Shown here in pieces: positions 1 through 14,873 of a DNA stretch of 64,000 bases. Within the stretch, counting starts at the first letter, position 1. Each line of letters starts with the position of its first letter. A model generated the notes under the pieces. That model did not search any database and had not been told where the DNA came from. It worked only from the letters and a program-made list of their open reading frames with translations. The position numbers were made by a program, and so were the translations under genes. The stretch is from Candidatus Levyibacteriota bacterium (GTDB taxonomy: Bacteria > Patescibacteriota > Microgenomatia > Levybacterales > UBA12049), in contig JACPLG010000007.1 in NCBI GenBank assembly GCA_016186625.1, positions 10,426 to 74,425 of the forward strand, written 5' to 3'.

Positions 1-111
1 GCGGGTCAAGAGGGAGATTCACTAGCAGATTATGATAGATGCTACCGTCAAGTTGTGTTGTGTGGGGTCAAGAGGCAGCCTGAGGTTATATTGAAAGGTG
101 AAAAAAATAAC

Positions 112-636
112 TTACCTACTCGCGCATGTGCCAACTGGTCGCCCAGTGGGCATACAAAAACCGCTACGACACTGGCTGTGATCAGTACAAGCGCTGCCGT
201 TTGTTAAACCCCCTCCTCCACCGCCCCCGCTGAGACTGGGAATGCTAAGGTTTCTTATGCTTTCAAGGCCAAAGAAGGTGAATAAGAAGTTGATTATAAA
301 GAATGCCAGAAATACGAGTATCAATCCCACCACAGAAGCAACAATTGTACCTCTGGCTTCCTCAACTTTTGTCTTATCTCCTCCTGAGAGAATCCAGCGG
401 ATACCGCCAAATATTAAAAATGCCAGGGCAATTAAGACAGCCAAAATGAATGCCAATGTTACCAGCTTTCCAATAAATCCTCCTGAAAGAGTAAAGTTGC
501 ACAGTGTTCCAAAACCCACCCCGCCTCCTCTTACGCAAGGATTTACATTTGTTTGTGCAAAGACAGGAGAAGTTATGGCGAAAAATGAAAAAATAAAAAA
601 TAAAAAAGAGGAACCTGCGGCAATTAGCTTTCTCAT
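112..636 (-). CDS. TrbC/VirB2-like T4SS-type pilin (signal peptide plus two TM helices; Gly-run and Cys-rich C-terminus)
   Basis: Motif IFGGIRWILSGGDKTKVEEARGTIVASVVGLILVFLAFFIINF is typical of CPR TrbC/VirB2 pilin domains. Likely start is the internal Met (MRKLIAAG...) preceding the hydrophobic signal peptide. Confidence 0.6.
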   Translation of the reverse strand: MRKLIAAGSSFLFFIFSFFAITSPVFAQTNVNPCVRGGGVGFGTLCNFTLSGGFIGKLVTLAFILAVLIALAFLIFGGIRWILSGGDKTKVEEARGTIVASVVGLILVFLAFFIINFLFTFFGLESIRNLSIPSLSGGGGGGGLTNGSACTDHSQCRSGFCMPTGRPVGTCASR

Positions 637-703
637 ACTTAATTCGATCGTAGAAGAATTCCTCAGGTTTGTCAAGGAGAGAGCTAATAGCTAAACTAAA
701 AGG

Positions 704-2194
704 ATGCAACTTGTTAAAATAAATAAATTTAATTTTCTGATATTAATTTCTGCTTTCTTGCTCTTTTTTGCAATAGGAACCCTTTTTCTTGACCCTGATT
801 TTGGGTGGCATATGAAAATGGGGGAGCTGATGCTTGCAAAAGGAATCCCCAAGAATGACCCCTTTTCCTACACTATGCCAAGTTACCCTTTTGTGGATCA
901 TGAGTGGCTCACGGATATTATTCTTTATCTTATCTACCAAAATATCGGATATGCCTCACTTGCAGTACTTTTTGGCCTAATAGCAGTTCTATCAATACTA
1001 ATAATGTTTAGATCAAGACAAGATCAATCCTACTTCCTCGTACCTTTTATACTCGGCGCAGGATCACTTTTGCCATCCTCGGGAGTAAGGCCCCAGGTTA
1101 TCTCCTGGCTATTTTTTTCTATTTTAGTAAGCTTCTTTTTTGATGAGAAAATCTATAAACGACTTCGTATATTTCTTCCAGTCTTTTTTCTTGCGTGGGC
1201 AAATCTTCACGGAGGATTTGCCATAGGAATTTTTACGCTCGCAACATTTATATTCTTTAAATTTCTGAAGGATAAAAAGATAAATTTTATAGATATATGG
1301 GTAGTTATTTTTTGCGCTCTAGCAACTTTAATAAATCCCTACGGTATAAATCTTTGGAAAGAAATTTATATGTCAGCCTCAGATTCATCTCTTAGATGGG
1401 GAATCCAGGAATGGGCTCCGGCATTCTTTTTCTTTAATGTCCCTCTCATAACACTTGTTTGCCTTTCAGCGTTTCTTGTCATAAGATTTAGAAAAAATTT
1501 TGGACTTTTTGAAAAAGCTCTCTATTTGGGTTTACTTTTAGCCGGATTATCAAGCGTTAGGCACATGCCATTTTTTGTCCTAGTTAGCCTGCCTCTACTT
1601 TCAAAAAGCATAGGTTTTTTGGGCAAAGAGGCAGAAAGAGTCAAATATGGAAGGCAAAGGTTTAAAAAAGCCTACACTTTTATGGTGGCTCTTTCAATTT
1701 TTACCGTAATTGTGCCGCTTGTGTCAGGAAAAGATCTCTTATTTTCCAGACAAAGCGCATATCCTGCAGATGCTTTAGGCTATTTAAAACGCAATCCTGG
1801 TAGCGGTAATTTATTTTCAGAATATGGTTGGGGAGGATATCTTATATGGAGGTATCCCGAGAAAAAAGTTTTTATAGACGGAAGAATGCCCAGCTGGCGG
1901 TGGCAGGCTGATATAAAAAATGAAAGCAATTACGCCTTCAAAGAATACAAGGATTTAATGAATGGGAAATCAAAGCTTAGTTATGCCATTAATAAATATA
2001 ATATAGATACATTTTTACTTCCTGTTCAAGTAAAAAAAGAGCTATCATATCCTGAACTTTTATTTGAGCGGCTTGAAAATAAAATATTTAGAAAAGAAAA
2101 ATATGATAATATTTATATCCAGCTAGAAAGGGAGGGCTGGAATGTTGTCTACCAGGATAAAGTTGCAATTGTTTATAGAAAGAGTAGATTATAA
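704..2194 (+). CDS. polytopic membrane protein, possibly GT-C type glycosyltransferase
   Basis: 496 aa with more than 10 predicted TM helices and a large loop. No firm family call is possible from sequence alone. Confidence 0.35.
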   Translation: MQLVKINKFNFLILISAFLLFFAIGTLFLDPDFGWHMKMGELMLAKGIPKNDPFSYTMPSYPFVDHEWLTDIILYLIYQNIGYASLAVLFGLIAVLSILIMFRSRQDQSYFLVPFILGAGSLLPSSGVRPQVISWLFFSILVSFFFDEKIYKRLRIFLPVFFLAWANLHGGFAIGIFTLATFIFFKFLKDKKINFIDIWVVIFCALATLINPYGINLWKEIYMSASDSSLRWGIQEWAPAFFFFNVPLITLVCLSAFLVIRFRKNFGLFEKALYLGLLLAGLSSVRHMPFFVLVSLPLLSKSIGFLGKEAERVKYGRQRFKKAYTFMVALSIFTVIVPLVSGKDLLFSRQSAYPADALGYLKRNPGSGNLFSEYGWGGYLIWRYPEKKVFIDGRMPSWRWQADIKNESNYAFKEYKDLMNGKSKLSYAINKYNIDTFLLPVQVKKELSYPELLFERLENKIFRKEKYDNIYIQLEREGWNVVYQDKVAIVYRKSRL

Positions 2195-2225
2195 TTATAA
2201 AATCCGAATATCGAAATTCGAAATC

Positions 2226-2340
2226 CGAAACAACAATGGTCAGAATACTCGGATGATTACTAAGATAGTTCAGAAGACTCAGAATACTCAGACCACCGGA
2301 GCATCAGAGAGTCCGACTAACAGAAAACCAGAAGACCTGT
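2226..2340. repeat. dispersed repeat family A copy (CAGAA/CTCAG word element)
   Basis: The words cagaatactcgg and cagaagactcagaatactcag are shared with the elements at 15236, 24036 and 27341. Confidence 0.5.
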
Positions 2341-13034: not shown

Positions 13035-13124
13035 TTTTAGTTTGATTTATTTTGAGCTAGATGTCAAGCAGCCCTACACTAAAGTTTCGGATCTGCGAGC
13101 AGCGTCGGATCGGCGAAAGACGGG

Positions 13125-13211
13125 CGGAGAGGGTGGGATTCGAACCCACGGTAGCATTGCTGCCACAAAGGTTTTCAAGACCTTCTCCTTAAACCGCTCG
13201 GACACCTCTCC
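13125..13211 (-). tRNA. tRNA-Ser(UGA)
   Basis: Cloverleaf with long variable arm. Acceptor ggagagg/cctctcc, anticodon loop cuUGAaa, T-arm gtggg-ttcgaat-cccac. Confidence 0.85.
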
Positions 13212-13261
13212 TTAGGTGTATTTTACCAGTTTTTGAGCTTGGGTTAAAGTAAGACTGAAAT

Positions 13262-14674
13262 TTAAGCGGGTCTTCTTTGTGGCTGAGAAGTCTGTTCCAC
13301 AGTACCTCTTGCCTGTTTGAATGAATCCATTACGGTATTTGCAAATAAGACTAAAAAGATACCTAATAAGAAACTTCTTATCCTTCTTTTCCTTTTCTCA
13401 TGTCTGATCATTAAATAATGCTGGTTTGCCCCCTCATATCTTGCTTCAGCTCGATCAATTTTACTTTGATCGCCGGATCTAATTGCCTCATCAAGCTCTG
13501 ATTTTAATTGGTCTCTGTATGCTTTTGCCCCTTCATCAGCTTTTGCCACTCGTTCTTCATACGAGCGAGTTGAGTCTGTCTTGGCAGCTTTTTTCATTGG
13601 CTCAAAAACCCTCTCTTTATATAGCTCAGCATGCTGTTTTCTTATTTCACTTGAACTACTATCAGCATTTGTTCCTCTTCCAAATAAGGTACGGATTCTT
13701 GAACCCAGATGTCCAAGCTTTCCTCCAATCGCTCTCTCAGCTTGTGCCCTGATATAAGAGGAATTAAGAAGCTCATCATTTTCTTCAGCCTCTTGCAGTC
13801 TTGTTTCAAACAATTTTCTATCTTGTGCATTTAAATTTCCTTCTGCTTTTTCCTCAGCCTCAGCCAACTCCTTTTGAACATCTGCGGCAAAAGAAAATAT
13901 AGGTTCGGCCGTTTCATCAGGCTCCGGAGGTTCTGCGGCAGGTGTGTCTGGCTCATCGTCTACAGGAGGAGCCTCGGCAGGTACTCCGGCGACATCCTGA
14001 TTTTCAGCTCCTACAACATCTTTTGGAGCTTCTTCAATTTCCGAACTTTCTGCTACTGTTGGGGCATCCGCCTCATCTTGAGCTGATGTAGGCGATTCAA
14101 CTATAGGGCCTGCTGCTTCCGTGGCAGAATCTGACACCTCCTTAAACCTGAGCTTTGCTGCCTCATGTCTTAATCTAGCCTGTTTAATAGCAAGTTCGTT
14201 TCCAGAAGCAAGCGCGTCATTGAGTTCTTGTAGCGTACTATCTCTGGCGGAGGCTACATCAGCAAGCTTATCTTCCACAGGACGATAATTTGCTTCGGAT
14301 CCAACAGGAGTCGGTTCCGCAGTTTCTATTGTGGGTTCAGCTGGAGTAGTTTCTGGGGAAGCATTTTTGTCTCCTGCTGATTCAGGTGTCATTGGTTCAG
14401 CGACTGGTGGAGGAAGAGATGCGGGGTCCACATCTGCTACTGTTGCCAAGCCATTATCAACAGCAGGCGGCGCAGCTTCTTCAGACTGGCCTCCTATTGC
14501 TGTTTGAACTCTCGCTGCTAGAGCTTCACCAGCTGTGGTTTCGGCGTGGCTTGGCCCAGCTGGAGATCCGCTTTCTGGAGTCGAACTTCCGGCTGCTTCC
14601 ACAGCGCCTGGTGATGCTCCTGCTTCTGCCGGTGGTGGAGCGACTGTTATGTCTGGTGATGGTAATCCTCCCAT
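13262..14674 (-). CDS. acidic Ala/Glu/Pro-rich low-complexity protein with C-terminal TM anchor
   Basis: 470 aa with coiled-coil segments. C-terminal FLLGIFLVLFANTV is hydrophobic. Confidence 0.5.
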   Translation of the reverse strand: MGGLPSPDITVAPPPAEAGASPGAVEAAGSSTPESGSPAGPSHAETTAGEALAARVQTAIGGQSEEAAPPAVDNGLATVADVDPASLPPPVAEPMTPESAGDKNASPETTPAEPTIETAEPTPVGSEANYRPVEDKLADVASARDSTLQELNDALASGNELAIKQARLRHEAAKLRFKEVSDSATEAAGPIVESPTSAQDEADAPTVAESSEIEEAPKDVVGAENQDVAGVPAEAPPVDDEPDTPAAEPPEPDETAEPIFSFAADVQKELAEAEEKAEGNLNAQDRKLFETRLQEAEENDELLNSSYIRAQAERAIGGKLGHLGSRIRTLFGRGTNADSSSSEIRKQHAELYKERVFEPMKKAAKTDSTRSYEERVAKADEGAKAYRDQLKSELDEAIRSGDQSKIDRAEARYEGANQHYLMIRHEKRKRRIRSFLLGIFLVLFANTVMDSFKQARGTVEQTSQPQRRPA

Positions 14675-14873
14675 ATACCCTTTCTTTAGTCTAAGCTTAC
14701 TTAGCTTAGTTTGTCAAAGTATACAGTGAGGCAAGCCCGACAGCTTGATAACAACTTTACAGAAAGATTATAAGATTAGACGGTAGATGATAGATAATTG
14801 AAGATAGAATTTTTGAAGATAGAAGATTGAGGATGGATCGATTTTCTATTTTCCATATCCAAATTCCTACTTT

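Follow-up and report, generated by a model that had tools for sequence, protein, structure and literature searches.

Patescibacteria carry a lineage-specific type IV secretion system (T4SS), chromosomally encoded and derived from the MPF-FATA class, which has been described by Wang et al. 2023 (PMC10633639) and Quinonero-Coronel et al. 2025 (PMC12102498). According to the available parts of these accounts, its gene clusters contain arrays of 2–11 VirB2-like pilins, especially in Microgenomatia and Saccharimonadia (PMC12102498, PMC10633639); a relaxase is usually lacking, VirD4-like type IV coupling proteins (T4CPs) are mostly encoded far from virB4, and in Microgenomatia VirB6 is “scarce”, “suggesting extreme sequence divergence” (PMC12102498). 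Southlakia epibionticum, the one species tested, cannot grow epibiotically without the system, and the same sources, in their available parts, call the role of the system “completely unknown” (PMC11665869, PMC12857230, PMC10633639). The present analysis concerns the left part of a 64,000-nt stretch of DNA, hereafter the window, from contig JACPLG010000007.1 of a Candidatus Levyibacteriota bacterium; all coordinates are those of the window, and the module under study occupies approximately positions 1–16,000. This region is read here as the membrane and pilus half of a chromosomal, MPF-FATA-derived T4SS of the Patescibacteria type in Levybacteria (Microgenomatia), in which a 1239-aa orphan protein (hereafter the giant), identical to hypothetical protein HYW63_02020 of a Candidatus Levybacteria metagenome-assembled genome, would serve as a dedicated substrate. 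A rough joint probability of 0.55 is assigned to this reading, the proposed mechanism and the role of the giant included.

In its overall plan the locus resembles the cluster SEML1_0006-0019 of S. epibionticum and the surveyed patescibacterial systems, as far as the accessible descriptions go, being chromosomal and non-mobile, with MPF-FATA-like parts (VirB3/PrgI, TraC-like, VirB4, VirB6) and a divergent VirB2 array. It is also like them in that the T4CP is encoded elsewhere, no relaxase is seen and the arrays are sometimes interrupted by non-pilin genes. It is unlike them in possessing a family of orphan proteins of ~1000 aa, a regulator that combines NTPase motifs with a winged helix-turn-helix (wHTH) domain, an acidic tail-anchored protein and genes for intervening-sequence (IVS) proteins, all of them unreported in the available parts of PMC10633639 and PMC12102498, and in that its pilins are position-specific paralogues rather than members of a freely varying array. 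An earlier note on this DNA had maintained that the gene set matches no described operon; this stands for the giant, the regulator and the VirB6-like family, which go unmentioned in those parts of the two papers, but not for the cluster type, as patescibacterial T4SS clusters with VirB2 arrays have been described (PMC10633639, PMC12102498). Every element listed in that note was found where it had been placed (open reading frame (ORF) listing and profile scans), and the T4SS context it had proposed is real.

The grouping of these genes is not a product of chance, as it recurs in dozens of independent contigs. Contigs carrying eight close homologues of the giant (34–42% identity) and one remote homologue (E 3e-5) share the same gene order and orientation, namely a pilin array, a Trans_reg_C regulator, the divergently transcribed giant gene and a convergent gene for a membrane protein of ~530 aa, beyond which, where the sequence allows, follow genes for an acidic protein, a 114-aa protein and a protein of ~190 aa. 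More distant loci, in which homologues of the 550-aa membrane protein of the window are just 39–43% identical to it, contain an ORF of 904–970 aa in the place of the giant and, past the pilins, genes for PrgI/VirB3-like, TraC-like (PF26593) and DUF87/AAA_10/P-loop_TraG VirB4-type ATPase proteins. The PrgI, TraC-like and VirB4 genes directly follow the pilins in loci L002, L007 and L009, closer Levybacteria contigs included; the TraC-like gene is equated here with the TrsD homologue of PMC12102498, as far as the accessible description of the latter goes. Because the array in relatives runs straight into these genes, the locus, judged by its gene context, is a core chromosomal T4SS rather than the accessory one postulated in the earlier note.

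The left edge of the window most likely cuts the T4SS cluster, with the motor genes lying just to the left of it, because the 64 kb contain no PrgI, TraC-like or CPR-type (candidate phyla radiation) VirB4 gene and relatives have 4–5 pilins versus 3 in the window (3–5 over the related loci as a whole). Exact-product look-ups (187-aa pilin, P0001) for the DNA left of the window returned no record, those with a 496-aa protein encoded inside the array returned only 2-kb contigs, and a scan of metagenome contigs for exact 52-mers yielded no match. A scan of positions 1–16,000 for sigma-70 promoters and terminators performed no better than it did on shuffled sequences.

The association of the giant with the T4SS was further traced in 80 loci, retrieved from JGI metagenomes with the 550-aa family and analysed by script. 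A convergent ORF of 832–1382 aa (threshold of at least 800 aa) abuts the VirB6-like gene in 40 of the 44 loci with at least 3.5 kb of downstream sequence, and 29 of these 40 ORFs are recognised by a hidden Markov model (HMM) of the giant family. In three of the four remaining loci the absence is not clear: L066 and L067 have a 4.1-kb gap missed by the offset search interval, and L094 has a match to the giant HMM. Where at least 8 kb are available downstream, the regulator and at least two pilins lie beyond the giant in 20 of 22 loci, and in none are they found on the other side; a Gottesmanbacteria-type locus retains the VirB6-like gene, the giant and the pilins, with the regulator missing. 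By its genomic distribution, the giant thus appears as an obligate, lineage-specific partner of the T4SS. The co-conservation of the giant with VirB6-like and pilin genes, a check that the earlier note had suggested, was found, and profile searches did not overturn the pilin or VirB6 calls.

Three VirB2-type pilin genes lie on the minus strand. They encode a 187-aa protein (112..675; PF18895 E 1.3e-10, above the gathering score; likely true start at the Met codon at position 636), a bare 114-aa pilin without Cys (2796..3140; PF18895 E 7.4e-9) and a 302-aa fusion (3579..4487; PF18895 E 4.5e-9, residues 222–289). All three exceed the PF18895 cut-off, in agreement with the earlier call of three TrbC/VirB2-type genes, one with a large Cys-rich secreted domain, and an HMM of their pilin domains yields exactly three matches in the whole 64 kb, all in the locus. 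Each starts with a hydrophobic leader and has a pair of hydrophobic helices around a conserved (S/T)(G/A)GD loop. In the 187-aa protein the signal peptide and the two-helix pilin hairpin are followed by a Gly6 linker and a small C-terminal knob with four Cys; in the 302-aa protein the signal peptide is followed by an ectodomain of ~190 aa with 16 Cys and then by the VirB2-type hairpin, and the protein reaches 37 bits against NF045849 (a Mycoplasma pilin-like family of integrative and conjugative elements, ICEs), just below the 40-bit cut-off. Orthologues of the 187-aa pilin (40–51% identity, or 57% in L006, where the match is partial) occupy the same distal position in related loci, those of the 114-aa pilin (40–62%) a fixed middle position, and closer orthologues of the 302-aa protein are 68–80% identical in the C-terminal domain, with a variable ectodomain. 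This pattern identifies the three, as far as comparison of the genomes can tell, as conserved position-specific orthologues and not as a freely varying array. The bare 114-aa protein is the likely shaft component and candidate major pilin, and the 302-aa and 187-aa proteins, each with a Cys-rich ectodomain, probably serve as adhesive subunits, either minor ones or at the tip. The first 111 bases of the window, immediately downstream of the last pilin gene, are apparently non-coding, with stop codons in all three minus-strand frames and one frame open from its stop to the window edge, and contain an 11-base direct repeat, GGGTCAAGAGG, at 3–13 and 65–75.

At the other end of the module, a 550-aa polytopic membrane protein (11382..13034, minus strand) is encoded tail-to-tail with the giant. 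It belongs to a family of at least 734 homologues; the window protein itself has no Pfam match at E<=0.1 and no NCBIfam match, and the family profile finds no match among PDB sequences. P0093, a homologue that matches the window protein at E 3.6e-104, scores 32.0 bits against Pfam TrbL, above the 25.9-bit threshold, covering profile positions 42–209 of 215, and TrbL is matched by 2 of 36 family members. The AlphaFold2 (AF2) model built from 36 sequences has a mean predicted local distance difference test (pLDDT) score of 67.9, rising to 80–95 in a transmembrane (TM) core with five or more long helices, and in a Foldseek search of 350,542 PDB chains its top seven matches were all TrwI/VirB6 of plasmid R388, with weak E-values of 0.06–1.2 and probabilities of up to 0.94. 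The gene stands among T4SS genes in every locus examined. The protein resembles TrbL/VirB6 (PF04610; TrwI of R388, PDB 7o3v/8rt9) in a predicted polytopic architecture of at least five helices with a large extracytoplasmic loop, and shares with it the encoding within a T4SS; it differs from TrwI in the lack of a direct Pfam match, in target-normalised TM-scores of 0.29–0.40 and in an N-terminal region of ~170 aa with conserved Cys, which TrwI does not have. Its assignment as a very divergent VirB6/TrbL channel or platform subunit is thus well supported but not proven. The VirB6/TrbL-like call of the earlier note holds up indirectly but consistently, through the TrbL score of P0093, the TrwI fold matches and the T4SS context, and a divergent VirB6 of this kind fits the scarcity of VirB6 reported for Microgenomatia in the accessible part of PMC12102498.

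Next to the VirB6-like gene lies the gene of a 470-aa acidic, Ala/Glu/Pro-rich protein (13262..14674, minus strand) with an isoelectric point (pI) of 4.62, falling to 4.05 over its Ala/Glu/Pro-rich N-terminal 260 aa, and a single hydrophobic segment at residues 432–452, in line with the acidic tail-anchored protein of the earlier note. It has no family match in Pfam or NCBIfam and evolves fast, its orthologues matching over the C-terminal half only, at 27–30% identity.

The giant itself (7659..11378, plus strand) has no family match: as the earlier note had stated, it carries no known domain, searches of Pfam, NCBIfam, PADLOC, PDB sequences (also with the family profile) and folds all having ended without a match. 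Among 45 family members no informative Pfam domain was found, the one marginal match being to CARD (E 3.3e-4). An exhaustive HMM search with residues 281–1239 assembles 164 clusters (50% identity) at E<=1e-3, typically of 850–1300 aa; word-indexed protein searches with the giant, as a single sequence or as a profile, had returned just 9 proteins. The protein opens with a conserved N-terminal motif (M.E..LT..INPTL...NIFM, or more loosely M.E....LT....P.....IFM), followed by a charged linker and a helical domain marked by KLAILKAHYVG...IIESGL; a hinge rich in Pro, near residue 285, leads into an all-alpha body of ~900 aa, and the C-terminal tail is basic and hydrophobic. The AF2 model, of low confidence (mean pLDDT 58.7), shows an all-alpha protein and gave no meaningful Foldseek match, only generic similarity of solenoid type.

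Neither a signal peptide nor a TM-grade segment is present in the giant. The only hydrophobic element of the family is the C-terminal tail, composed of a Lys/Arg cluster (KKKK), ~8 hydrophobic residues, Arg-Asp and ~12 hydrophobic residues; Kyte-Doolittle hydropathy averaged over 17 residues (KD17) reaches 1.6 within the last 70 aa of 62 out of 115 members, versus 6 out of 115 anywhere else, and the last 49 aa of the window protein have a pI of 11.5. Cysteine is nearly excluded from the family: among 122,907 residues there are 64 Cys (0.052%, compared with 0.58% in the other ORFs of the window and 0.69% in the VirB6-like family), and 73 of 115 members, the window protein among them, lack it entirely. 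In closer genome pairs the giants are 33–42% identical versus 65–69% for the regulator, 58–66% for the VirB6-like protein and 67–82% for the flanking small proteins, the rate of evolution of the giant being about double that of its neighbours; in loci further removed, the giant drops below HMM detection with its position retained. The giant and VirB6-like ORFs are convergent and only 3 bases apart (11376–11384), the gaps between called gene coordinates in seven related loci being 3–28 bp; as the 3-base gap leaves no room for separate intergenic terminators, the convergent transcripts should overlap.

Divergently from the giant, a 452-aa regulator is encoded (5639..6997, minus strand), with a C-terminal winged helix of the OmpR/PhoB type (Trans_reg_C E 6.7e-20) and an N-terminal Walker-A/B-like domain. 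Its orthologues are 65–71% identical in closer loci and 43–58% in L006, L009 and L010. The regulator shares with OmpR/PhoB regulators the DNA-binding domain, and differs from them in lacking a receiver, for which Pfam, NCBIfam and PDB searches gave no match, and in possessing an N-terminal domain of ~340 aa instead. PDB matches are confined to residues 350–452, and residues 1–340 have no Pfam, NCBIfam or PDB match; the Walker-A-like motif reads GVGRS in seven of eight orthologues and GVGKS in one, and a Walker-B-like LLFD(R/K)FEE of the form hhhhD..EE is conserved across all eight. The earlier description of a P-loop ATPase–wHTH regulator is accordingly borne out in its second half, and in its first half by motifs without a profile match. 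A two-component response regulator was rejected as an identity for this protein, given the absence of a receiver domain and the presence of Walker-like motifs at the N-terminus in its stead.

Upstream of the giant gene a promoter-like block was found (7594..7625, plus strand), with CTGTAA (7595–7600) and TATCAA (7618–7623) separated by a 17-nt spacer, located 36 nt upstream of the ATG at 7659. The pattern GTAAA..TTTT.T.A....ATATCAAG is invariant or nearly so in eight loci, whose giant proteins are only 36–42% identical, and the block is a plausible promoter of the giant gene. The giant and the regulator/pilin operon share this divergent control region, which measures ~80 bp in loci without an inserted IVS-protein gene, and the receiver-less regulator probably controls both divergent transcription units.

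A candidate recruiter of substrates is encoded 30 kb away from the module, where a 774-aa ATPase gene stands alone (44887..47211, plus strand). The earlier note had called it VirB4-like; VirD4/TraD-type profiles fit it far better, with TrwB_AAD_bind (E 8.3e-10), T4SS-DNA_transf and TraG-D_C above the Pfam cut-offs and the TraD subfamily at E 6e-14 versus E 0.0078 for TIGR00929 VirB4 (14.5 bits, the cut-off being 643 bits). The Walker A sequence GKTGTGKT and a TM segment at the N-terminus complete the picture of a T4CP-like protein, and recruitment of T4SS substrates is its possible function. Just upstream of its gene lies a 397-aa ORF with a Cys-rich tail (43242–44435) and no family match.

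We know of no substrate of a patescibacterial T4SS. In the proposed mechanism, three non-redundant VirB2-type pilins would be inserted by Sec and polymerised by a VirB3/TraC-like/VirB4 motor, whose genes lie elsewhere in the genome, with the VirB6-like protein as the platform. The giant would be made in the cytoplasm without a Sec signal as a dedicated substrate. Its conserved N-terminal motif, its basic-hydrophobic C-terminal tail or both would serve as the recognition signal, the unlinked VirD4-like coupling protein being a possible receptor, and the T4SS would then export the giant to the cell surface or into a host cell. This role is suggested because the giant has neither a Sec signal nor a TM segment, excludes Cys, ends in a basic tail, diverges fast and has a promoter-like block of its own, and because a T4CP is present in a phylum whose relaxases are reported to be rare. 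CagA, the protein encoded in the Cag T4SS locus of Helicobacter pylori, is likewise a mostly alpha-helical protein of ~1200 aa with no known homologues outside its lineage, no Sec signal, a basic C-terminal region and rapid divergence; the giant may be likened to it in these features, by analogy only. Provided that the module itself is correctly identified, an exported substrate is the modestly favoured role of the giant, held tentatively and at less than even odds, over that of a scaffold, which is the lesser possibility of the two. The more specific proposal, by which the Cys-free family of ~1000 aa would constitute the first dedicated protein substrate of a patescibacterial T4SS, be it an effector or an extracellular pilus-associated factor, recognised via the N-terminal motif and the C-terminal tail and delivered to the host cell, is possible and on balance doubtful.

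Several considerations weigh against this reading. No PrgI, TraC-like or CPR-type VirB4 homologue was detected within the 64-kb window by tblastn with the proteins of orthologous loci; the VirB6 link of the window protein is indirect, being transitive via P0093, with Foldseek E-values of 0.06 or worse; and the P-loop ATPase identity of the regulator N-terminus, based on motifs only, is a weak point. Given a pLDDT of 58.7, the missing fold match of the giant may reflect a failure of modelling. The roles of the pilins, the regulatory scheme and above all the export of the giant are proposals drawn from sequence, and machine parts, more typically than effectors, keep a strict 1:1 synteny across deep divergence. 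Cytoplasmic proteins without Cys do exist, the T4CP-like ATPase, with none in 774 aa, being one of them. Finally, the hydrophobic C-terminal tail could equally be the membrane anchor of a cytoplasmic scaffold.

Such a scaffold is the foremost alternative, unlikely in itself and still to be reckoned with: the giant would not be exported at all and would stay in the cytoplasm as a membrane-tethered, all-alpha scaffold or adaptor within the inner-membrane complex of the T4SS. Its C-terminal tail would dock on the membrane itself or on the VirB6-like subunit, and the protein might organise the ATPases or take the place of VirB8-type parts, with the acidic tail-anchored protein perhaps as a second component of the cytoplasmic face. 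The position of the family's sole hydrophobic segment at the extreme C-terminus, after a Lys/Arg cluster, is indeed reminiscent of a tail anchor, the neighbouring acidic protein is tail-anchored as well, and the tight tail-to-tail synteny with the VirB6-like gene, the near-universal co-occurrence of the two and the generic solenoid-type similarity of the giant model are compatible with a structural role; VirB8 homologues are, moreover, rarely detectable in Patescibacteria, as stated in the accessible part of PMC12102498. The tail itself makes a poor anchor, however, being broken by a conserved Arg-Asp (Arg...Glu in the window subfamily), too short for a hairpin and, in the window giant, below a TM-like hydropathy score; a more than 10-fold exclusion of Cys and a divergence ~2 times that of the neighbouring machine genes would also be unexpected for a cytoplasmic structural subunit.

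It is considerably less probable that the giant and the acidic protein are unrelated to the T4SS, as envelope or cytoskeletal proteins kept nearby by general conservation of the neighbourhood. The housekeeping flanks (NUDIX, SmpB, tRNA cluster, SpoIID) are syntenic across genomes too, and the association of the giant with the T4SS is known from gene context alone; yet the giant lies between the VirB6-like gene and the regulator or pilins in every locus examined, including the Gottesmanbacteria-type locus without a regulator and loci where it falls below HMM detection, and the compact divergent control region of ~80 bp is common to it and the pilin operon. An integrated conjugative element, or another T4SS for DNA transfer or uptake in which the giant would be an unconventional relaxase or pilot protein, is the least credible option and highly improbable. 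The basic C-terminal tail presumably resembles signals recognised by T4CPs, a T4CP-like ATPase is present, and the system descends from monoderm conjugation machinery according to the accessible part of PMC12102498. Against this, the region showed neither an integrase or relaxase nor repeat boundaries, profile scans having revealed no relaxase or integrase domain among the window ORFs scanned (some small ORFs were left unscanned); the giant contains no HUH, Rep, primase or Walker motifs; and relaxases are reported as absent from most patescibacterial T4SS clusters in the same accessible part (PMC12102498). The flanks of the locus (SpoIID, SmpB/tmRNA, NUDIX and a Ser/Arg tRNA cluster) are syntenic between the window and its relatives, which marks the locus as chromosomal rather than mobile; on this ground an ICE or other mobile element was rejected. 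A defence system was likewise rejected, PADLOC having returned no match.

Three genes encode four-helix-bundle proteins of the 23S rRNA IVS type (IVS proteins, IVPs). Copy 1 (2369..2713, plus strand) and copy 2 (3179..3694, minus strand) match PF05635 with E 4.4e-15 and E 1.8e-24 (residues 58–160), respectively; the true start of copy 2 is probably the Met codon at position 3553, as the long ORF overlaps a pilin gene. Copy 3 (7002..7541, minus strand), the first gene of the leftward operon, carries a “suffix” domain (TIGR04258 E 2.2e-19), matches TIGR02436 (E 1.7e-8) and with 31.9 bits stays just below the 33.8-bit cut-off of PF05635. The earlier call of three such genes thus stands, two being above the PF05635 cut-off and the third passing TIGR02436 and TIGR04258. 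The PF05635/TIGR02436 family is related to bAvd of diversity-generating retroelements. An IVP HMM finds all three copies of the window inside the locus, the other ~49 kb giving no match. IVP genes recur in L009, L010, L015, L020, L021 and L024 and in 23 of the 80 metagenome loci; all 36 copies in the latter lie on that side of the VirB6-like gene which holds the module (368 kb), the opposite side (299 kb) having 0, and 33 of the 36 are co-oriented with the pilin operon. Their slots vary: 11 copies lie between the giant and the regulator, 5 between the regulator and the first pilin, 9 among the pilins and 5 after them. The window genes match the family of 23S rRNA IVS proteins, one with the TIGR04258 suffix domain, and are unlike its rRNA-borne members in residing inside a T4SS operon at variable slots, neither in rRNA nor beside a reverse transcriptase; no reverse transcriptase or rRNA gene was found near them. 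Their nature may be that of functional accessories, such as chaperones, or that of selfish cassettes with site specificity.

Two further genes interrupt the pilin side of the module on the opposite strand. A 496-aa polytopic membrane protein with ~9 hydrophobic segments (704..2194, plus strand), of unassigned family and with no Pfam, NCBIfam or PDB match, has a 45%-identical orthologue in the distant locus L010 (18961–20448), at the same place and in the same orientation inside the pilin array; that it might modify pilins or the envelope is pure speculation. An AbiEii-like nucleotidyltransferase gene (4912..5517, plus strand; PF08843 E 8.3e-5, 23.1 bits versus a 22.5-bit cut-off) stands within 4488–5638, between the 302-aa pilin gene and the regulator and on the strand opposite to both. 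It has no tblastn match at that position in any related locus examined, and because the regulator directly adjoins the pilin in the gene lists of these relatives, it looks like an insertion specific to this genome and outside the conserved module. An ORF at 4761–4964 is a possible partner of this gene.

The acidic protein gene is separated from the VirB6-like gene by a tRNA-Ser(UGA) (13123..13211, minus strand; ARAGORN, Rfam), whose position is conserved in L002, L003, L007 and L010; as it shares the strand of both genes, it may be co-transcribed with them. The right flank of the module (14874..16015) consists of genes for a 117-aa acidic protein (minus strand) and a 197-aa two-TM protein (plus strand), in the same order in related loci and 67–74% and 62–82% identical there, the latter with weak similarity to DUF5673 (E 0.0012, below the cut-off). 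Elsewhere in the window, an AdoCbl-II riboswitch just above the Rfam gathering score (41608–41677, plus strand) is flanked on one side by the gene for the large subunit of a ribonucleotide reductase, with a TSCPD domain (39128–41530), and on the other by a pair of genes for DUF6580 and cob(I)alamin adenosyltransferase (42102–43257). Other tRNA calls comprise a tRNA-Ile with anticodon UAU (ARAGORN; 47270–47342, minus strand), a 92-nt tRNA-Arg(UCU) with only 33 bits in Rfam (16831–16922, minus strand) and a 70-nt tRNA-Met(CAU) called by ARAGORN and unreported by Rfam (50082–50151, minus strand).

The T4SS itself is already described; what is new in this locus is a candidate for the “missing” VirB6 of Microgenomatia, an obligate family of orphan giants, a dedicated regulator and IVS genes embedded exclusively in the module. 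The 550-aa family, with at least 734 matches, is plausibly the missing and highly divergent VirB6, and the receiver-less regulator together with the conserved divergent promoter region are candidates for how the pilus is switched on. The orphan family of ~1000 aa, substrate-like in composition and evolution, is a specific candidate for either a cargo or a new part of the machine. Should the giant be a mere scaffold, the gain would be smaller, namely an extra lineage-specific subunit of a known machine; should it be exported to host cells, these episymbionts would possess in their relaxase-less T4SS a device for injecting proteins or manipulating the host, in which the IVS proteins could act as accessory factors, for example as chaperones.

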